From IMG/VR virus record IMGVR_UViG_2541047780_000004: 45,478 nucleotides of DNA; one strand, 5' to 3'. The DNA is from a virus (lineage: Duplodnaviria; Heunggongvirae; Uroviricota; Caudoviricetes). Below are positions 3,806-20,748 of the stretch, piece by piece (position 1 is the first letter of the stretch; each line of letters opens with the position of its first letter). The notes beneath the pieces are model-generated. The model was not told where the DNA came from. It did no database searches and saw nothing but the letters and a program-made list of their open reading frames with translations. Made by a program: the position numbers and the translations under genes.

Positions 3806-4570
3806 TCAATCTCCATTGGTATCAATGTTTACAGCCTGACAAGACTCTTTGAGCACCCAGTCAATAGCGTCTTTCCATGCCTCTGTTTCGACTGGTGGAT
3901 TTTCACGCTTAACCTGTTCATAGAAGCGCACTGCTTTAACCAGTCCTTCCGGTACTACTGGTGATGGCTGTTTAGCTTCTAAATCAGCAATTCTGTCAAC
4001 CACGGCATCGACAGCATCTGAAAAGCCGAACCAGTTGCTCCACTCCGGCTCATCCCCGGTTGCTGCAAAGTACATATCTGCTAAAGCAGATTCAGCATGG
4101 TCACGCTCGTTAATGAGTTGCTCTTCGCTTTTCTCCAGTTCAGCAATACGCTTACCCCCATCCGAGATAACACCTTCGTAATACTCACGCTGCTCGTTGA
4201 GTTTTGATTTTGTCTCCTCAAGCTCAACTCTCAGCTTCCCAACAGTAAGAGCAATATCCTCGTTCTCCTGGTCGCGGCGTTTTATGTATTGCTGGTTTCT
4301 TTCCCGTTCATCCAGCAGTGCCAGCACAGTAGCCGGATTGGCTGCGGCGATGAATTCAGCATTGGCCTGCTGTTCCATTTGGAAATCTTCATCGAAACCG
4401 CTTTCTGGATGCGCTCCTTCAATTCTGCAAATGGGAATATATCCAGCAACTTCACGATGAATTAGCGCATAATCACCATCAAATCGGCTCTCTCCATATT
4501 CGAGCGACCACTCACCACACGTTGCTTTTTCTGCCGCTTCACGCAGTGCCTGATAGTTAATTTCGCTCAC
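3806..4570 (-). CDS. Ea22-like early protein
   Basis: 254-aa ORF with GTG start overlapping the upstream TGA (GTGA) and a GAGAGG RBS; coiled-coil-rich sequence resembling lambdoid Ea22-family proteins as recalled. Confidence 0.65.
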   Translation of the reverse strand: MSEINYQALREAAEKATCGEWSLEYGESRFDGDYALIHREVAGYIPICRIEGAHPESGFDEDFQMEQQANAEFIAAANPATVLALLDERERNQQYIKRRDQENEDIALTVGKLRVELEETKSKLNEQREYYEGVISDGGKRIAELEKSEEQLINERDHAESALADMYFAATGDEPEWSNWFGFSDAVDAVVDRIADLEAKQPSPVVPEGLVKAVRFYEQVKRENPPVETEAWKDAIDWVLKESCQAVNIDTNGD

Positions 4571-4886: not shown

Positions 4887-5168
4887 TCACCGTTCCTTAA
4901 AGACGCCGTTTAACATGCCGATCGCCAGGCTTAAATGAGTCGGTGTGAATCCCATCAGCGTTACCGTTTCGCGGTGCTTCTTTAGTACGCTACGGCAAAT
5001 GTCATCGACGTTTTTATCCGGAAACTGCTGTCTGGCTTTTTTGATTTCAGAATTAGCCTGACGGGCAATGCTGCGAAGGGCGTTTTCTTGCTGAGGTGTC
5101 ACTGAACAAGCCCCATGTCGGCAAGCATAAGCACACAGAATATGAAGCCCGCTGCCAGAAAAATGCAT
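4887..5168 (-). CDS. Hypothetical protein (alternative GTG start at 5102 gives 71 aa)
   Basis: 93-aa ORF from ATG 5166-5168 without a clear RBS; an in-frame GTG at 5100-5102 overlaps the stop of a 27-codon ORF in another frame (GTGA), giving an alternative coupled arrangement. Confidence 0.45.
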   Translation of the reverse strand: MHFSGSGLHILCAYACRHGACSVTPQQENALRSIARQANSEIKKARQQFPDKNVDDICRSVLKKHRETVTLMGFTPTHLSLAIGMLNGVFKER

Positions 5169-5182
5169 TCAGTGGTTGTCAT
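5099..5182 (-). CDS. Candidate 27-aa hydrophobic peptide (MTTTECIFLAAGFIFCVLMLADMGLVQ)
   Basis: ATG at 5180-5182 overlaps the upstream stop (ATGA); TGA at 5099-5101 overlaps the next GTG (GTGA); sequence is strongly hydrophobic. Below the 60-aa ORF-track cut-off, so absent from the track. Confidence 0.3.
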   Translation of the reverse strand: MTTTECIFLAAGFIFCVLMLADMGLVQ

Positions 5183-5370
5183 ACCTGGTCTCTCTCATCT
5201 GCTTCTGCTTTCGCCACCATCATTTCCAGCTTTTGTGAAAGGGATGTGGCTAACGTATGAAATTCTTCGTCTGTTTCTACTGGTATTGGCACAAACCTGA
5301 CTCCAATTTGAGCAAGGCTATGTGCCATCTCAATACTCGTTCTTAACTCAACAGGAGATGCTTTGTGCAT
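5179..5370 (-). CDS. Small early protein (resembles Qin-prophage YdfA-type proteins from memory)
   Basis: 63-aa ORF, ATG at 5368-5370 with GGGAGG RBS; family name is unverified recollection. Confidence 0.5.
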   Translation of the reverse strand: MHKASPVELRTSIEMAHSLAQIGVRFVPIPVETDEEFHTLATSLSQKLEMMVAKAEADERDQV

Positions 5371-5531
5371 ACCGCCTCCCGTTTATTATTTATCTTCTCA
5401 GCCAGCCGCTGTGCTTTCAGTGGATTTCTGATAACAGAAAGGCCGGGAAATACCCAGCCTCGCTTTGTAACGGAGTAGACGAAAGTGATCGCGCCTACCC
5501 GGATATTATCGTGAGGATGCGTCATCGCCAT
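5343..5531 (-). CDS. Small early protein (hypothetical)
   Basis: 62-aa ORF, ATG at 5529-5531, overlaps the downstream gene by 28 nt. Confidence 0.45.
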
Positions 5532-5733: not shown

Positions 5734-6881
<1,148 letters not shown>

Positions 6882-8571: not shown

Positions 8572-9471
8572 ATGACAAATACAGCAAAAATACTCAACTT
8601 CTGCAGAGGTAACTTTGCCAAACAGGAGCGTAATGTGGCAGATCTCGATGATGGTTACGCCAGACTATCAAATATGCTGCTTGAGGCTTATTCAGGCGCA
8701 GATCTGACCAAGCGACAGTTTAAAGTGCTGCTTGCCATTCTGCGTAAAACCTATGGATGGAATAAACCAATGGACAGAATCACCGATTCTCAACTTAGCG
8801 AGATTACAAAGTTACCCGTCAAACGGTGCAATGAAGCCAAGTTAGAACTCGTCAGAATGAATATTATCAAGCAGCAAGGCGGCATGTTTGGACCAAATAA
8901 AAACATCTCAGAATGGTGTATCCCTCAAAACGAGGGAAAATCCCCTAAAACGAGGGATAAAACATCCCTCAAATTGGGGGATTGCTATCCCTCAAAACAG
9001 GGGGACACAAAAGACACTATTACAAAAGAAAAAAGAAAAGATTATTCGTCAGAGAATTCTGGCGAATCCTCTGACCAGCCAGAAAACGACCTTTCTGTGG
9101 TGAAACCGGATGCTGCAATTCAGAGCGGCAGCAAGTGGGGGACAGCAGAAGACCTGACCGCCGCAGAATGGATGTTTGACATGGTGAAGACCATCGCGCC
9201 ATCAGCCAGAAAACCGAATTTTGCAGGGTGGGCTAACGATATCCGCCTGATGCGTGAACGTGACGGACGTAACCATCGCGACATGTGTGTACTGTTCCGC
9301 TGGGCATGCCAGGACAACTTCTGGTCCGGTAACGTGCTGAGCCCGGCCAAACTCCGCGACAAGTGGACCCAGCTCGAAATCAACCGTAACAAGCAACAGG
9401 CAGGTGTGACAGCCTGCAAACCAAAACTCGACCTGACAAACACTGACTGGATTTACGGGGTGGATTTATGA
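8572..9471 (+). CDS. O: Replication initiator O (lambda type)
   Basis: 299-aa ORF near-identical to lambda O as recalled (MTNTAKILNF...); contains the iteron array internally. Confidence 0.95.
   Translation: MTNTAKILNFCRGNFAKQERNVADLDDGYARLSNMLLEAYSGADLTKRQFKVLLAILRKTYGWNKPMDRITDSQLSEITKLPVKRCNEAKLELVRMNIIKQQGGMFGPNKNISEWCIPQNEGKSPKTRDKTSLKLGDCYPSKQGDTKDTITKEKRKDYSSENSGESSDQPENDLSVVKPDAAIQSGSKWGTAEDLTAAEWMFDMVKTIAPSARKPNFAGWANDIRLMRERDGRNHRDMCVLFRWACQDNFWSGNVLSPAKLRDKWTQLEINRNKQQAGVTACKPKLDLTNTDWIYGVDL
8920..9050 (+). repeat. ori-lambda-type origin: four about 18-bp iterons followed by an AT-rich segment
   Basis: Iterons ATCCCTCAAAACGAGGGA-like at 8920-8937, 8941-8957, 8964-8981 and 8987-9005, then an A-rich tract 9006-9050, inside the O gene. 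Confidence 0.85.
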
Positions 9472-14457: not shown

Positions 14458-14785
14458 TGTACGCCCTTTTTTTGAACTTTTATTAAAAAATGATGTCACT
14501 GCGCGATAAATATTCATCTAATCAATGTGATTATTTCAAGATGTAAGTTTTAGTTTCTCATTTAATTTGTGAAGTAGATCTCTATTTTTATCTGAACCTT
14601 TTCTATCTAATCCTATTCATGGCTCTTGTCTGAACAAAAATAAATCTATTAGCTAATTTATATTAATGGCACTTATTTATAAGTGCTCTATAATTCTTTA
14701 GCTTAATTTAAACAAACTAAAAATAACATCGGAAATTATTAACTGGTTATTTGTTGAAGTTTTCTTATGCATTTGTGGTGGTGTT

Positions 14786-14816
14786 TTGAACACTCGGTGG
14801 CATTCTCACAAATATC
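14786..14816 (+). promoter_or_regulatory. Candidate late promoter (PR'-like)
   Basis: TTGAAC at 14786-14791 and an AT-rich -10-like hexamer about 18 bp downstream, located about 70 nt upstream of the terminator at 14884; weak evidence. Confidence 0.2.
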
Positions 14817-14883
14817 ATTTAGTAGTTTACGTACGTAAAAAATTGGTTATGCTGTTAAGAGTGGTTACTTCGTCACACAGCTT

Positions 14884-14917
14884 AAACCCGCCGTCGAGCG
14901 GGTTTTTCCATTTTTTG
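14884..14917 (+). terminator. Rho-independent terminator upstream of the lysis cassette (tR'-like)
   Basis: 8-bp stem AAACCCGC / GCGGGTTT with loop CGTCGA, followed by TTCCATTTTTT; lies about 130 nt upstream of the holin start. Confidence 0.55.
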
Positions 14918-15045
14918 AGTCTCGATATTAGCTGATAACCCAATACCTGAGTTATTCACTGACTCCGAATCTGTTACGTTTCTGCCTTTATTGCGATACG
15001 TAGTATCCCCTTAATTTACACCCGCTTTGTCTGCGAGGTGGGGTT

Positions 15046-15261
15046 ATGAAATCCATGGATAAGTTAACAACGGGTGTCGCCTATGGTACCTCAGCAGGTA
15101 GTGCCGGGTACTGGTTTTTACAGTTGCTCGATAAAGTCACGCCCTCACAGTGGGCGGCAATAGGTGTGCTGGGTAGCCTGGTATTTGGCCTGCTGACGTA
15201 CCTGACAAACCTTTATTTCAAGATTAAAGAAGATAAGCGCAAGGCTGCGAGAGGTGAATAA
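15046..15261 (+). CDS. Pinholin (phage-21 S-type class II holin) with dual-start motif
   Basis: 71-aa product close to S21 as recalled; two closely spaced Met codons (M1 and M4) fit the holin/antiholin dual-start arrangement. Confidence 0.85.
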
Positions 15262-15758
15262 TGCCTCCATCATTACGAAAAGCCGTTGCTGCTGCTATTG
15301 GTGGCGGAGCAATTGCTATAGCATCAGTGTTAATCACTGGCCCAAGTGGTAACGATGGTCTGGAAGGTGTCAGCTACATACCATACAAAGATATTGTTGG
15401 TGTATGGACTGTATGTCACGGGCATACAGGAAAAGACATCATGCTCGGTAAAACGTATACCAAAGCAGAATGCAAAGCCCTCCTGAATAAAGACCTTGCC
15501 ACGGTCGCCAGACAAATTAACCCGTACATCAAAGTCGATATACCGGAAACAATGCGCGGCGCTCTTTACTCATTCGTTTACAACGTGGGTGCTGGCAATT
15601 TCAGAACATCGACGCTTCTTCGCAAAATAAACCAGGGCGATATCAAAGGCGCATGTGATCAGCTACGTCGCTGGACATATGCTGGCGGTAAGCAATGGAA
15701 AGGTCTCATGACTCGTCGTGAGATTGAGCGTGAAATCTGTTTGTGGGGTCAGCAATGA
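15261..15758 (+). CDS. SAR endolysin (phage-21 R-type lysozyme)
   Basis: 165-aa product with an N-terminal Gly/Ala-rich signal-anchor-release segment and a lysozyme-like domain. Confidence 0.85.
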
Positions 15759-16216
15759 ACAGAGTAACCGCGATTATCTCCGCTCTGGTTATCTGCATCA
15801 TCGTCTGCCTGTCATGGGCTGTTAATCATTACCGTGATAACGCCATTACCTACAAAGCCCAGCGCGACAAAAATGCCAGAGAACTGACGCTGGCGAACGC
15901 GGCAATTACTGACATACAGATGCGTCAGCGTGATGTTGCTGCGCTCGATGCAAAATACACGAAGGAGTTAGCTGATGCGAAAGCTGAAAATGATGCTCTG
16001 CGTGATGATGTTGCCGCTGGTCGTCGTCGGTTGCACATCAAAGCAGTCTGTCAGTCAGTGCGTGAAGCCACCACCGCCTCCGGCGTGGATAATGCAGCCT
16101 CCCCCCGACTGGCAGACACCGCTGAACGGGATTATTTCACCCTCAGAGAGAGGCTGATCACTATGCAAAAACAACTGGAAGGAACCCAGAAGTATATTAA
16201 TGAGCAGTGCAGATAG
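15755..16216 (+). CDS. Rz (i-spanin)
   Basis: ATG at 15755 overlapping the endolysin stop; N-terminal transmembrane segment then coiled-coil region. Confidence 0.8.
15975..16157 (+). CDS. Rz1 (o-spanin lipoprotein), embedded in Rz in the +1 frame
   Basis: 60-aa ORF entirely inside Rz; lipobox (VVGC) and proline-rich segment ([13 protein letters not shown]). Confidence 0.7.
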
Positions 16217-16247
16217 AGCTGCCCATATCGATGGGCAACTCATGCAA

Positions 16248-16541
16248 TTATTGTGAGCAATACACACGCGCTTCCAGCGGAGTATAAATGCCTAAAGTAA
16301 TAAAACCGAGCAATCCATTTACGAATGTTTGCTGGGTTTCTGTTTTAACAACATTTTCTGCACCACCACAAATTTTTGCTGCATCGACAGTTTTCTTCTG
16401 CCCAATTCCCGAAACGAAGAAATGATGGGTGATGGTTTCCTTTGGTGTTACTGCTGTAGGTTTGTTTCCAACAGTAAACGTCTGTTGAGCACATCCTGTA
16501 ATAAGCATTGCCAGAGCGGCAGAAAACAACATTTTTTTCAT
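16248..16541 (-). CDS. bor: Bor lipoprotein (serum-resistance family)
   Basis: 97-aa product from ATG 16539-16541 with AGGA RBS; lipobox ITGC; near-identical to lambda Bor as recalled. Confidence 0.85.
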   Translation of the reverse strand: MKKMLFSAALAMLITGCAQQTFTVGNKPTAVTPKETITHHFFVSGIGQKKTVDAAKICGGAENVVKTETQQTFVNGLLGFITLGIYTPLEARVYCSQ

Positions 16542-17021
16542 CTTATTATCCTGCATTGTTAAAAACGGCAGAATCCTATGTGACAACAATTAAACGATAG
16601 TTAAATGGATTGATGAAAATTAAAACTACACAGGTGGGCTCAGACTATTGGAGGAAGTTGGGGACACTCAGAATCCTGTGGAATGAAATAAACCGGTCTA
16701 TCCGTCCATTACCCTTTTAGCTGCGCTGTATCGTCGCCGTATTCCCGCATTAACCATGACCGTAGCCCGACGGGGAATTCCTTCTGCGTGAGTGTGCGGG
16801 AATAATTAAAAACGATGCACACCGGGTTTTTACCGCGTTAATGATTCGCGGGTTTATCCCGGTGCGATGGTGGAAGAAACAGGAAGCTGTATTACAGAAA
16901 GTGCTACTACTGTATCCCGATGCGATGTATGTAATGTGAGTCAGATAATGGCACAGGATGTGGTGATGTGGCAGTCTGGAACACAGGATATATTGTCAGA
17001 ATAAGACCCGTAGGAATAAAA

Positions 17022-17348
17022 ATGAAAAGACGCCTTTTACTACTTTTTCTGTTATCTGTCCTGGCAGTGGGATGCTCGCAGCAAAAAGCTGATGAGCCCC
17101 GGCAATTAGTGACGGTGTATCCACGATATCCGGAATATGCTGCAGCAAATTATATCAAGGGGCTGGTTGAGGTTAAGTTCGATATTGGTGCTGATGGGAC
17201 TGTGACACGGATCGTTTTTCTCCGCTCAGAGCCTCATAATTTGTTTCGTGATGAAGTGGTGAAGGCCATGGCGAAATGGCGATTTGAAAAGAATCGCCCC
17301 TGTCAGGGAGTGAAGAGACAATTTATCTTTACGCCGTCACGTCCTTGA
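17022..17348 (+). CDS. Lipoprotein with TonB C-terminal-like domain
   Basis: 108-aa product from ATG 17022; signal peptide with lipobox (LAVGC); residues about 35-105 align by eye with the TonB C-terminal domain (YP..A....I.G.V.VKFD...DG.V....S.P...F..EV..AM..WR.E). Confidence 0.6.
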   Translation: MKRRLLLLFLLSVLAVGCSQQKADEPRQLVTVYPRYPEYAAANYIKGLVEVKFDIGADGTVTRIVFLRSEPHNLFRDEVVKAMAKWRFEKNRPCQGVKRQFIFTPSRP

Positions 17349-17470
17349 TGCTTCCAGGTAGAGAGGGGCTGGAAGCAGGAGAAAAATGAAAGAGCCAGCG
17401 GTTATATTTTTGTCATGGCTGACGAGGAATGATGGAAGAAGGCGTTGTATGCCACACAACGCCTCACTGT

Positions 17471-17824
17471 TCATTTCTTCTTTTTCTCTGGTGGAACCCG
17501 ATGAATAAGAGTTGCACTGGTTTCCGATGAGATGGCGATATACTCGGGCAAAGTATGCTGGCAGTTTTCCAACTGGTCAAAAATACCTGCTCTCGTCTGT
17601 TGCAATGCCTGCAGCATGCGGCGGCAATGCGCCTTGCTTTTACTAACCATCTTTCCTTCCTCTATCAGTCGCTGCGTGAACTCATCATGGAATACCAGGT
17701 AAATGCGGATGTTATCGGTTTTGGCTACGCAGCATAGTACAAAACGGACAGGTGCATCCCGGGACGGGGGAGGCGTCACATGTCCCTGTGATGGTTGTTC
17801 CGGGTAATGTACTGTGTGGGGCAT
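17471..17824 (-). CDS. Hypothetical ORF (possibly the 3' part of a frameshifted gene)
   Basis: 117-aa ORF with ATG start; overlaps ORF 17712..17963 by 113 nt in a different frame. Confidence 0.3.
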   Translation of the reverse strand: MPHTVHYPEQPSQGHVTPPPSRDAPVRFVLCCVAKTDNIRIYLVFHDEFTQRLIEEGKMVSKSKAHCRRMLQALQQTRAGIFDQLENCQHTLPEYIAISSETSATLIHRVPPEKKKK

Positions 17825-17963
17825 AAAAATGTCCGATAATTTTACTTTCTACCGCAGTTAGTTGATTCGTTGGTCCTGGTAGCACATTGGGCGAGGATTT
17901 AAATGCCAGGCAACTGAAGGATGATGTCGCAAGGGAGATAGCGAGAATATTTCTGATTTTCAT
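17712..17963 (-). CDS. Hypothetical secreted small protein (signal peptide, Cys-rich C-terminus)
   Basis: ATG at 17961-17963 with AGAGG RBS; N-terminal hydrophobic signal-like segment MKIRNILAISLATSSFSCLA. Confidence 0.35.
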   Translation of the reverse strand: MKIRNILAISLATSSFSCLAFKSSPNVLPGPTNQLTAVESKIIGHFYAPHSTLPGTTITGTCDASPVPGCTCPFCTMLRSQNR

Positions 17964-18099
17964 TTGATGATGCCTCTGTGTGAAATGACGGTAAACGACG
18001 CACTTGTGCCGGCACATAATAGCAAGCACCATAATAGATCAGATTCGATTCTTGCTGTAAGTGATAATTATTCTCGTTTTCGGGTCCTTTCCGTCGATC

Positions 18100-18299
18100 C
18101 AACAGGTTACGGGGCGGCGACCTCGCGGTTTTTCACTATTTATGAAAATTTTTCAGGGAAAATCGTGTCGGTACTTCTCGAATATAACTTTTTGTTTTTT
18201 TTAATATTGCATCCGTAAAGGTCCGACATGAAAGTGTCCGAAAATGCCTTTTTCTGGCGTTTTCATGTCGGGCCTTGTATTTGATAATGGGTTGTTTTC
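18100..18299 (+). other. cos region (cosN cohesive-end sequence GGGCGGCGACCT at 18112-18123, followed by cosB-like region)
   Basis: Match to the lambda 12-nt cohesive end as recalled, immediately upstream of the Nu1 gene. Confidence 0.8.
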
Positions 18300-18848
18300 A
18301 TGAAGGTTAATAAAAAGAGGCTTGCCGAAATTTTCAACGTGGACCCGCGGACGATTGAACGCTGGCAGTCTCAGGGACTCCCTTGCGCCTCCAAAGGTAG
18401 TAAGGGCATTGAATCTGTATTTGATACTGCCATGGCAATTCAGTGGTATGCGCAGAGGGAAACTGATATCGAAAACGAAAAGCTCCGCAAAGAACTGGAC
18501 GATTTGCGTGCGGCAGCGGAGTCAGATTTACAACCCGGCACCATTGACTATGAACGCTACCGGCTCACAAAAGCGCAGGCAGATGCGCAGGAACTGAAAA
18601 ATGCCCGTGAAGACGGAGTAGTGCTGGAAACTGAACTGTTTACCTTCATTCTGCAACGTGTGGCACAGGAGATTTCGGGGATACTTGTGCGTGTGCCGTT
18701 GACATTACAGCGTAAATATCCGGACATTTCACCATCACACCTTGATGTGGTGAAAACTGAAATCGCGAAAGCCTCCAATGTTGCAGCTAAGGCCGGTGAA
18801 AACGTGGGCGGGTGGATCGATGATTTCAGACGCGCAGAAGGCAGCTAA
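18300..18848 (+). CDS. nu1: Terminase small subunit Nu1
   Basis: 182-aa product with strong similarity to lambda Nu1 as recalled ([12 protein letters not shown]...). Confidence 0.9.
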
Positions 18849-20748
18849 TGCAGCCGGTGCGATAGCTACAGGGCTTTTATCTCTCATTATTCCTGTTCCA
18901 CTGACGACAGTTCAGTGGGCCAATAAACATTATTACCTTCCTAAAGAGTCGTCTTATACCCCGGGGCGATGGGAAACACTGCCGTTTCAGGTTGGCATCA
19001 TGAACTGTATGGGCAACGATCTGATTCGCACGGTTAACCTGATTAAATCTGCCCGTGTTGGTTATACAAAGATGTTGCTGGGAGTGGAGGCTTATTTTAT
19101 TGAGCATAAATCACGCAACAGCCTTCTTTTTCAGCCCACGGACTCAGCTGCTGAAGATTTTATGAAATCTCATGTTGAGCCAACGATAAGGGATGTTCCT
19201 GCATTGCTGGAGCTGGCTCCATGGTTCGGAAGAAAACACCGCGATAATACGCTCACCCTGAAGCGTTTTTCCTCCGGTGTGGGGTTCTGGTGTCTGGGTG
19301 GTGCGGCAGCAAAAAACTACCGTGAAAAATCCGTGGATGTGGTCTGTTATGACGAGCTTTCCTCGTTCGAACCGGATGTTGAAAAAGAGGGTTCGCCAAC
19401 CCTGCTGGGGGATAAACGTATTGAGGGCTCTGTATGGCCAAAATCCATTCGCGGCTCGACGCCTAAAATCAAAGGCTCCTGCCAGATCGAAAAAGCCGCT
19501 AACGAGTCGGCACACTTCATGCGTTTTTATGTGCCCTGTCCGCACTGTGGGGAGGAGCAGTATCTGAAATTTGGCGATGATGCCTCGCCTTTCGGTCTTA
19601 AGTGGGAGAAGAATAAGCCAGAAAGTGTTTTCTACCTTTGTGAGCATCATGGCTGTGTGATCCATCAGTCTGAGCTTGACCAGAGTAACGGGCGGTGGAT
19701 CTGTGAAAACACGGGCATGTGGACCCGTGACGGCCTGATGTTTTTCAGCGCCCGGGGTGATGAAATTCCGCCGCCGCGCTCCATCACTTTCCATATCTGG
19801 ACGGCGTACAGTCCGTTCACCACCTGGGTACAGATTGTCTATGACTGGCTGGATGCACTGAAAGATCCCAACGGCCTGAAAACCTTTGTGAACACCACGC
19901 TGGGCGAGACCTGGGAAGAGGCTGTGGGCGAAAAACTCGATCACCAGGTGCTGATGGATAAGGTTGTGCGTTACACGGCGGCGGTGCCTGCCCGGGTGGT
20001 TTATCTGACGGCGGGCATTGACTCGCAGCGAAACCGTTTTGAGATGTATGTCTGGGGATGGGCTCCGGGAGAGGAAGCCTTTCTGGTGGATAAAATCATC
20101 ATTATGGGGCGTCCCGATGAGGAAGAGACGCTGTTACGTGTGGATGCGGCGATCAACAAAAAATACCGCCATGCAGACGGAACCGAAATGACCATTTCCC
20201 GTGTCTGCTGGGACATCGGGGGGATCGATGGCGAAATCGTTTATCAGAGGTCAAAAAAACACGGTGTTTTCCGGGTGCTGCCGGTAAAAGGCGCGTCTGT
20301 CTATGGCAAGCCGGTGATCACCATGCCGAAAACCCGCAATCAGCGGGGCGTTTATCTGTGTGAAGTGGGGACGGACACCGCAAAAGAAATTCTCTATGCC
20401 CGTATGAAAGCCGAGCCCACGCCTGCGGATGAAGCCACGTCGTATGCCATCCGTTTTCCTGATGATCCGGAGATTTTTTCGCAGACAGAGGCGCAGCAAC
20501 TGGTCGCGGAAGAGCTTGTGGAGAAGTGGGAAAAAGGAAAGATGCGTCTGCTGTGGGATAACAAAAAGCGGCGTAACGAAGCGCTGGACTGCCTGGTGTA
20601 TGCCTACGCGGCATTACGTGTGTCCGTGCAACGCTGGCAGCTTGATCTGGCTGTACTGGCAAAATCCCGGGAAGAAGAGACGACCCGGCCAACCCTTAAA
20701 GAACTGGCAGCGAAGCTGTCCGGAGGAGTGAATGGTTACAGTCGCTGA
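18820..20748 (+). CDS. A: Terminase large subunit A
   Basis: Start chosen at ATG 18820 by alignment with lambda A (30 residues before the VQWANKHYY motif); ORF track's 18778 is the longest ORF. Confidence 0.9.

Follow-up and report, generated by a model that had tools for sequence, protein, structure and literature searches.

In this study, the intergenic stretch between bor and a gene for a TonB C-terminal-domain lipoprotein (hereafter the TonB-like gene) has been analysed in a viral DNA of 45,478 nucleotides (IMG/VR record IMGVR_UViG_2541047780_000004), the whole of which is called the window. The window is a phage-21-type lambdoid genome and the gap sits in a phage-21-type prophage; over 16540-17030 the window matches Escherichia phage 21 (OL657228) and six further phage records with 100% identity. 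The intergenic stretch proper covers 16542-17021 (480 bp), and from its relationships to other phages it reads as a three-part mosaic, consisting of the bor upstream region, a copy of a structured RNA element and the leader of the TonB-like gene. The overall best explanation, to which we assign a rough probability of 0.45, is such a mosaic in which the RNA element would act in cis as a boundary module of the late messenger RNA (mRNA). The element, about 180 nt in length, apparently represents a structured RNA family undescribed in the databases and in the literature searched, and it is of a type already known, a structured RNA element within a phage operon.

The borders of the element were determined by aligning copies from lambda, 434, 21, 933W-like phages, Pankowvirus-type Stx phages, Salmonella S135 and O157 prophages. 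Alignments of copies with unrelated flanks begin at TGCGCTGTATCGTCG and end at GGTGGAAGAAACnGGA; the borders are abrupt, and on either side of them the flanking DNA of one phage class is unrelated to that of another. RNAalifold applied to 22 representatives gave the nested helices P1-P6, with compensatory changes in 12 pairs, and two helices were added by eye, namely a GGG(G)/CCC(C) helix enclosing P5 and the pairing of the segment immediately 5' of P6 with the 5' part of the P6 loop, which makes up the pseudoknot along with P6. The family fold has a 5' domain formed by a long irregular hairpin (P1-P4) and a 3' domain formed by the P5a/P5 hairpin and then an H-type pseudoknot with the purine-rich third loop GG-N-R-GA-N-GAA. 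Some unpaired positions are also kept in the most divergent copies. These are GCG at the 5' end, GUCGC after P1, UUAAC and GAC in the apical loop, GAGUG, AAUCAAUAAC in the P2/P1 junction, A-N-ACCG, UCAU before the pseudoknot and the GG-N-R-GA-N-GAA of loop 3.

The fold is carried by covariation in three alignments. In A1 (22 sequences) 96.1% of the cells were paired against a shuffled mean of 92.2%, and 15 pairs showed double changes against 6.4±1.6 in shuffles. Alignment A2, with 64 distinct sequences, gave 95.8% against 91.9% and 20 pairs against 9.1±1.6. The 28 diverse sequences of A4, which include the divergent relatives, gave 93.5% against 78.9%, with double changes in 36 of 46 pairs against 18.4±2.5. 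For each alignment, none of 500 shuffles reached as high a number of doubly changed pairs. When the pairing partners were slid by one to three columns, only 28-63% of the cells were paired over A1, A2 and A4 (30-54% in A4). The pseudoknot forms an independent check because its helix is absent from the covariance model. Its three variable pairs appear in A4 as GU/CG/GC/AU/UG, CG/UA/UG and CG/AU/GC/UA, and the arms occur in independent versions in different lineages (GUCGC/GCGAU, CUCGC/GCGGG, GCCGC/GCGGU, GCCAG/CUGGC, GCAGC/GCUGC, UCAGC/GCUGA and GUGGCA/UGCCAU). Two other approaches were set aside: single-sequence minimum free energy folding was uninformative as a guide and mispredicted the canonical copy, and an all-against-all scan of column pairs for tertiary contacts was drowned in phylogenetic noise.

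The paired cells contain 312 G·U against 16 A·C combinations, which argues that the structure belongs to the RNA of the plus strand, that is, the late-operon strand. No reading frame was open across all copies of the element (plus strand 27/80, minus strand 18/80), and its insertions and deletions, of 1-17 nt, are not multiples of three; judged from this variation, the element is not protein-coding.

In the window, the covariance model R1 places a copy of the element at 16721-16884 on the plus strand (167.8 bits, E=3e-50), and this copy is a deletion variant of 164 nt. The 5' domain is intact as a long irregular hairpin at 16728-16818, in which P1 pairs 16728-16734 with 16812-16818, P2 pairs 16740-16750 with 16794-16804 as a GC-rich hairpin (TATTCCCGCAT/GTGCGGGAATA), P3 pairs 16759-16766 with 16786-16793 and P4 pairs 16767-16768 with 16774-16775. 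The 3' domain is a remnant (16820-16884) with a 17-column gap in A1. Relative to canonical copies, 17 nt are deleted between TTTAT (16853-16857) and CCCGG (16858-16862), and this takes out the 3' arm of P5a along with the 5' arm of the pseudoknot; the same gap is found in prophage locus L005. P5 (CCGCG/CGCGG, 16833-16837 with 16847-16851) is intact. P6 (16859-16863 with 16879-16883) carries a G·A mismatch at 16861/16881 and keeps its conserved loop GCGAUGGUGGAAGAA. The 3' half is predicted to fold into a single CACCGGG/CCCGGUG hairpin around P5 (CACCGGG/CCCGGTG in the DNA, 16820-16826 with 16858-16864). The fold z-score of 16700-16880 was -2.95 for the plus strand and -1.35 for the minus strand. 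The GC-rich segments which the initial annotation had considered capable of forming hairpins are real, with three stems located in 16740-16864.

The copy in the window keeps P1-P5 of the covarying helices P1-P6 and has lost the pseudoknot, whose 5' arm falls inside the deletion; by its sequence it is best described as a truncated derivative and not as a full member of the family. Should the pseudoknot be important, the loss of its arm and the mismatch in P6 have probably impaired this copy. The deletion variant is widespread, as 821 Escherichia coli genomes contain a stretch that spans 80% or more of the 481-bp gap sequence, and 816 records show 99% identity or more to that sequence; it is not a laboratory artefact. 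The copies of lambda, HK629 and DLP12 are degenerate in another way, with two pseudoknot pairs broken.

The carriers of the element include lambda, 434, 21, 933W-like and other Stx phages, Salmonella ES18, the DLP12 prophage of K-12 and divergent relatives. Copies were found with R1 in DLP12 of K-12 (NC_000913.3 579008-579174, between borD and ybcV), in four Sakai prophages, in E. albertii, in Intestinirhabdus alba and elsewhere. A BLAST search with the canonical copy matched 4592 of 5426 complete E. coli genomes (about 85%), in 3044 of which the match covers at least 80% of the copy, and a single E. coli genome has up to 11 element places, mostly annotated as nothing. In a sample of loci collected by Rz similarity, the full copy was present in 42 of 80 and the 3' domain alone in four more, so that the element is common but accessory. 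The copies with the 3' domain only (P5, pseudoknot and P6) lie in L300 (4399-4512), L308, L309 and L364 (4686-4798). The 5' and 3' domains can thus exist apart, either as remnants or as a minimal form.

The position of the element was examined by labelling the neighbours of 148 copies by homology, some flanks having no labelled open reading frame (ORF). Upstream of it lie Rz/Rz1, with or without a moron (bor, a 50-aa ORF or a pair of 165 and 85 aa). Downstream lie optional small genes in reverse orientation (YlcI/DUF3950, ECs_1967-like, orf117, YbcV or lambdap78) and then terS, for which at least four unrelated types were seen. In every labelled case, the genes for lysis and terminase were on the strand of the element. 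The copy in the window is placed likewise, after the post-Rz moron and before cos and terS on the late-operon strand. In moron-less phages, the element ends about 40 nt before cosQ/cosN. The divergent relatives (41-115 bits) lie upstream of a Terminase_2-type terS, in the order lysozyme, Rz, ANT/Rha/endonuclease moron, RNA, terS and terL, and copies down to 41 bits keep the fold. In ES18, a headful-packaging phage, the element lies about 90 nt before terS, and hence it is not tied to one packaging mechanism.

The mosaic nature of the gap can be followed from the partners of its segments. Positions 16542-16830 are common to 434 and many lambda-like phages at about 95-98%, and 16542-16821 are common at about 82% to plasmid iss loci, which are remnants of Rz, Rz1, iss and the upstream DNA. 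On the other side, 16722-16860 are found alone after the lysis cassette in bor-less O157 prophages, and 16722-17022 accompany the TonB-like gene in bor-less prophages (L005). All 16 differences between the window and L005 fall within 16727-16801, and 16802-17348 are identical, which points to a recombination joint inside the element. In locus L020, two copies of the element (5056-5234 and 6006-6184) flank a 198-aa moron just upstream of cos and Nu1. Their 5' domains are identical and their 3' domains differ, with compensatory changes in the pseudoknot and P6; this duplicate suggests that morons may be exchanged by recombination within the element. An 18-bp palindrome, GTGCGACCGTGGTCGCAC, stands on both sides of one of the L020 copies (~5030-5047 and ~5255-5272) and also beside a truncated copy in L042 (reverse complement, near 4100). 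A terminator is one possibility for it, a small mobile or repeat element another.

As regards function, the element would be transcribed rightward within the Q-dependent late transcript, and on this polycistronic mRNA it would serve in cis as a compact module setting a boundary for processing or stability, so as to mark and protect the place where the lysis segment ends, that where the packaging segment starts, or both. The action is pictured as that of the RNase III hairpins of T7, and the conserved loops may reflect recognition by a specific partner. Recombination inside the element would have brought in the leader of the TonB-like moron together with the 3' half of the RNA. A boundary module acting in cis is favoured since the element is always found at the lysis-packaging junction, would be made only within that transcript and has a 5' domain resembling RNase III hairpins. 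Taken by itself, the cis-acting processing or stability mechanism is put forward tentatively, and its standing is somewhat doubtful.

Several points weigh against this explanation. The transcription, processing and stability of the element are predicted from sequence, and the assignment of the bor promoter depends on homology and a degenerate PhoP box. The alignments A2-A4 were fitted to the nested structure of the model, which inflates the pair counts of the nested helices in them, the pseudoknot helix (outside the covariance model) and A1 being spared from this bias. The single-sequence fold of the canonical copy is no better than that of shuffles (z=-1.34). The pseudoknot and about 40 conserved unpaired nucleotides exceed the need of a processing hairpin and would fit RNAs that bind a protein or a ligand, or that are catalytic, better; this surplus structure makes a released RNA that binds a protein or acts as a decoy, a ribozyme or riboswitch, and a put/nut-type element the main rivals. 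Moreover, a full copy is present in just 42 of the 80 Rz-anchored loci and the laboratory phages lambda and 21 have degenerate copies, so that any role in cis on the late mRNA would be dispensable.

A more general reading is that the element forms a functional class of structured RNA that is new and has so far been overlooked, having either a specific macromolecule as its partner or a core that is catalytic or senses a ligand. About 85% of complete E. coli genomes hold one to eleven copies, K-12 with DLP12 being among the carriers, as is phage lambda itself. This reading is quite possible, without being what we would expect. Under it, the possible roles are a new self-cleaving ribozyme splitting the lysis mRNA from the packaging mRNA and a decoy against a host factor or a defence system.

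The strongest of the specific rivals is a structured RNA acting in trans, which would be released from the late transcript by RNases, in the manner of the phage transfer RNAs (tRNAs) between PR' and the holin gene, and would sequester a host or phage protein such as an RNA-decay, translation or defence factor. It agrees with a discrete unit which has sharp borders whatever the flanks and is duplicated around a moron. The next gene lies at a widely varying distance and is often on the opposite strand, and many unpaired positions, besides the pseudoknot, are conserved in divergent copies. The accessory distribution is also like that of phage anti-defence cargo. However, the partner is putative, promoter and terminator signals are missing, and in O157 Sakai the orphan peaks of Hfq obtained by cross-linking and analysis of cDNA (CRAC) adjoin the element on the opposite strand. 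We consider this explanation unlikely, though deserving of attention.

Less probable still is a catalytic or ligand-sensing RNA, either a new self-cleaving ribozyme at the 5' edge of the element or a riboswitch-like sensor. HDV-like (hepatitis delta virus-like), hatchet and glmS ribozymes cleave at their own 5' end, and the conserved sequence of the element starts abruptly at its 5' border. The pseudoknotted core with invariant junction nucleotides would also be in line with such an RNA, which needs neither promoter nor terminator, and self-cleaving ribozymes are common near phage packaging genes. On the other hand, the element matches no ribozyme or riboswitch family of Rfam 15 even at E<=10, and it has no adjacent expression platform, the next gene being often far away or on the other strand.

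An element of the put/nut kind, acting on RNA polymerase so that late transcription is processive through cos, reverse morons and terminators, is also improbable. The long structural operon always follows the element, at variable distance and with the element in sense orientation, and the apical internal loop of the element carries the UUAAC motif (AUCUUAAC or GCAUUAAC), conserved in divergent copies, which we take to resemble boxA. The resemblance to boxA/boxC extends over 6-8 nt, is too short for testing and was kept as a lead only. Against such a role, the element lies several kb downstream of PR' and not near a promoter, Q-modified polymerase already reads through terminators, and lambda and phage 21 grow with degenerate copies.

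The initial annotation had proposed that the gap could hold the promoter of the TonB-like lipoprotein moron or a small RNA, and taken as a moron promoter or an independently transcribed small RNA, the proposal has poor odds. Morons usually carry their own promoters, 16885-17021 travels with the TonB-like gene, and in Intestinirhabdus a GATAAT hexamer is found 6 nt before the 5' end of the element. However, a simple consensus scan for sigma-70 promoters on the plus strand of 16100-17500 gave no match for a moron promoter, weak or activator-dependent promoters being beyond its reach. No terminator-like site was seen on the same strand in that stretch, and no U run, hence no intrinsic terminator, follows P6. 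No common -10/-35 was present at the 5' border of the element across the flank classes. The Intestinirhabdus locus, where the element stands after a divergent promoter region, was rejected as evidence for a 5' leader; it is probably a prophage remnant, because terS is not followed there by terL. What does stand is the presence of an RNA feature, the covarying element at 16721-16884, and in that sense the guess of an RNA was borne out on the stronger ground of covarying helices and not of missing ORFs; a free-standing small RNA gene seems not to be what the gap holds, there being neither a conserved promoter nor an intrinsic terminator, with flanks that differ between phage classes and a sense orientation within the late operon.

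Finally, the idea that the stretch has no function of its own and is DNA hitch-hiking with the lysis cassette, or a homologous linker for modular recombination, is hardly credible: mosaic joints inside the element and domain-only fragments (5' on iss plasmids, 3' alone in some prophages) agree with it, but it does not account for compensatory changes in 36 of 46 pairs, for the covariation of the pseudoknot and for G·U outnumbering A·C 20:1, or for copies which down to 41 bits keep the fold despite sequence divergence.

The gap had been described as about 430 bp of non-coding DNA at 16590-17021. It is real, but its true limits are the 480 bp given above, and the bor-proximal third, which is bor's own upstream region, had been left out of consideration. 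The ORF list for 15000-19000 confirmed that no ORF of 60 aa or more lies inside 16590-17021, and the ORFs internal to the gap have 36, 37, 32, 45 and 25 aa, the largest being of 45 aa. Two longer ORFs reaching into the gap are mechanical extensions of its neighbours: 16248-16589 (TTG start) of bor, annotated at 16248-16541, and 16968-17348 (GTG start) of the TonB-like gene, annotated with ATG at 17022. The gap is among only four stretches of at least 150 bp in the 45-kb window which are uncovered by an ORF of 60 aa or more. The missing long ORF is nevertheless not beyond chance and is unremarkable by itself, because 59% of 2000 shuffles of the 480 bp were likewise without an ORF of at least 60 aa. 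The longest such stretch of the window, 14518-15045, corresponds in the phage 21 record to the PR' promoter, the Q-binding element (QBE), the tR' terminator and the genes of tRNA-Asn and tRNA-Thr. The covariance scan which had been suggested as a check was made against Rfam over 15500-18500 at E<=10 and returned nothing in 16590-17021.

In the window, the genes around the gap follow the order Rz (15755-16216), bor on the minus strand, the RNA element, the TonB-like moron, orf117 on the minus strand, cos near 18100 and nu1 at 18300. The curated annotation of phage 21 shows S21, R21, Rz/Rz1, bor, a 45-aa ORF and the TonB C-terminal-domain protein nearby, with cosQ about 1.1 kb past the TonB-like gene. 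The 117-aa ORF between the TonB-like gene and cos (orf117, 17471-17824, minus strand) has no Pfam match, and its homologues recur downstream of the element in other prophages.

The left border of the gap is formed by bor (16248-16541, minus strand; CPT_21_71 in phage 21), which encodes an outer-membrane lipoprotein of the Bor/Iss family. The adjoining 16542-16720 (minus strand) is assigned by homology as its 5' untranslated region and upstream (promoter) region, with a ribosome-binding site at 16549-16552 in the phage 21 record. This segment is common to 434 and lambda-like phages at about 95% identity, is 82% identical to the iss loci of E. coli plasmids and is homologous to the DNA upstream of borD and of lambda bor; the bor promoter is thus putatively placed here by homology. 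BorD was reportedly defined as a member of the PhoP regulon by Minagawa et al. in 2003. PhoP boxes were sought as the direct repeat (T/G)GTTTA-N5-(T/G)GTTTA upstream of a -10 element. In K-12, borD of DLP12 has a perfect box, TGTTTAgggttTGTTTA, with 0 mismatches where 0.06 are expected, lying 53-69 nt upstream of the start codon (NC_000913.3 578946-578962, minus strand; L211 2947-2963). In the window, the degenerate PhoP-box-like direct repeat CATTTAactatCGTTTA (16591-16607, minus strand), which was placed opposite the K-12 box by reading the two sequences, has 3 mismatches; 41 such matches were found against 30 expected, which is not significant alone. The control of bor by PhoP may differ between prophages, with a perfect box in DLP12 and a 3-mismatch site in the window. 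In the literature, vboR (=borD) is listed among the PhoP-regulated genes (PMC2789325). A fossil lambdoid late region can be seen in the plasmid iss locus L377 (pAH01-4, 611-1467), the one locus inspected among 687 plasmid places matched. It holds pseudogenes of Rz and Rz1 and the bor homologue iss, together with the DNA upstream of bor and the element's 5' domain; the segment ends before the 3' domain, and a pseudogene of an IS3-family transposase follows about 360 bp further.

The right border is the TonB-like gene itself (17022-17348, plus strand; CPT_21_73; Pfam TonB_C, E=7e-13). Its leader (16885-17021, plus strand), with the Shine-Dalgarno sequence AGGA at 17012-17015 and a ribosome-binding site annotated in phage 21, travels only with this gene. 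Expression of the gene may come from the late transcript or depend on a promoter invisible to a simple scan. In the search for promoters at the 5' border of the element, a minus-strand promoter predicted in the HK629 record (TGGACA-15-TACAAT) was discarded as it is found only in the lambda/933W variant and is absent from the window.

The 45-aa ORF annotated here as the hypothetical protein CPT_21_72 (16867-17004, plus strand) is unlikely to be a gene. It opens with the codons AUG GUG GAA GAA, which are those of the RNA's conserved P6 loop, it has no Pfam match, and tblastn returned only 100%-identical copies and no diverged homologue; a coding test was impossible as all copies are identical. 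Other small ORFs are annotated over the element on either strand, as in L008 (1538-1741), L213 (13476-13679, ECs_1218) and L003 (1670-1783), and also as a minus-strand 37-aa ORF in PhiR47_2 and as XSB42896. The small hypothetical proteins annotated over the element are probably mis-annotations, because of the covariation and of the lack of a conserved frame.

Few genetic systems have been studied as thoroughly as the lambda-type phages, and the usual picture of their late operon is that of a single promoter, a single antiterminator and a series of genes. At the lysis-packaging junction stands a covarying, pseudoknotted RNA of about 180 nt, which in thousands of genomes carries no annotation or is covered by small hypothetical proteins. 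If the finding holds, the control of late genes would gain a layer that had gone unrecognised, or the phages a new accessory RNA weapon; spurious ORF annotations (ECs_1218, CPT_21_72 and others) would be removed, and the clustering of mosaic recombination joints at this junction would be explained. The question is directly testable because intact (434, Sp10 type), pseudoknot-deleted (phage 21, the window) and pseudoknot-mismatched (lambda, DLP12) copies exist naturally.

In comparison with known RNAs, a search of Rfam 15 at E<=10 with a full-length copy (L004 2400-2760) returned no more than a chance match to a snoRNA at 9.7 bits, and full-text literature searches by the conserved strings of the element and by gene names returned nothing relevant. 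A 2025 review of phage-derived small RNAs describes nothing at this position. The known prophage small RNAs AgvB, AsxR, STnc100, Pas, IsrK and C4 were considered and set aside, being located elsewhere in the late or early regions. AgvB, AsxR, STnc100 and Pas share with the element that all are non-coding and hold conserved positions in the late region of lambdoid prophages. They lie between PR' and the holin gene or 3' of stx, and are short and Hfq-dependent with terminators (PMC4104026; bioRxiv 10.64898/2026.05.13.724894), whereas the element comes after Rz and has no terminator. The AgvB/AsxR and STnc100 families (RF02702, RF02703, RF02076) were found upstream of holin genes in Sakai Sp5 and Sp10 (STnc100 also in Sp12) and not at the element, and the scan of 15500-18500 showed none of them in the window.

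The highly abundant Hfq-CRAC orphan peaks EcOnc10, 11 and 12 (Tree et al. 2014) do not represent the element, as they lie on the opposite strand about 25 nt past its 3' end. With the peak coordinates calibrated on AsxR and AgvB (shift about +140), EcOnc11 (L215 ~8960-9008, minus strand, Sp10) and EcOnc10 (L216 ~5380-5428, plus strand, Sp12) are about 20-25 nt from the 3' end of the element, and EcOnc12 in Sp9 is presumably placed likewise. EcOnc10/11 are probably the 3' end of a reverse-oriented gene of the ECs_1967/ECs_2255 type, so that a 3'-UTR-derived small RNA would abut the element. The EcOnc13 probe was unrelated to the element.

Mimicry of a CRISPR repeat (clustered regularly interspaced short palindromic repeat) was also considered. 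In many E. coli copies P2 reads UAUUCCCGC...GCGGGGAUAAUC, which resembles the arms and the 3' flank of the type I-E repeat, as in Racr and solitary I-E repeat mimics; we take the E. coli I-E repeat to be GAGUUCCCCGCGCCAGCGGGGAUAAACCG. In contrast to the repeat, the element has about 45 nt in place of the tetraloop and no association with acr genes. The P2 stem changes compensatorily in Salmonella and in divergent copies (CAUCGC/GCAAUG, CACCAU/AUGGUG), which indicates that the structure and not the repeat sequence is selected, and mimicry was rejected for want of conservation in the sequence of the stem. Nothing at this position is reported in the papers on Racr and Cracr.

The put element of HK022 and the lambdoid nut sites are, like the element, sense-strand RNA elements of lambdoid phages and act independently of distance, the cis action and the binding of the element being putative. 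They differ in lying just downstream of early promoters and in being about 70 nt or shorter, whereas the element follows the lysis genes in the late operon and is built differently. The phage tRNA genes of lambdoid late operons are similarly discrete, accessory structured RNAs, promoterless within the PR' transcript and presumably excised by host RNases; the element is unlike them in position and fold, with no ARAGORN or Rfam tRNA match at the site. The closest working analogy, for the 5' domain, is given by the RNase III hairpins of T7, together with lambda sib and the N-leader sites. The element has no sequence or model similarity to the T7 hairpins, its cleavage by RNase III is putative, and it differs from them in its length of about 180 nt, in a second domain with an H-type pseudoknot and in its many conserved unpaired bases. 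In common with the element, these hairpins are structured, stand between gene blocks within a long phage transcript, are irregular with internal loops and need neither promoter nor terminator. They act in cis on the ends and the stability of mRNA, and it is by analogy with them that such an action is proposed here for the element.

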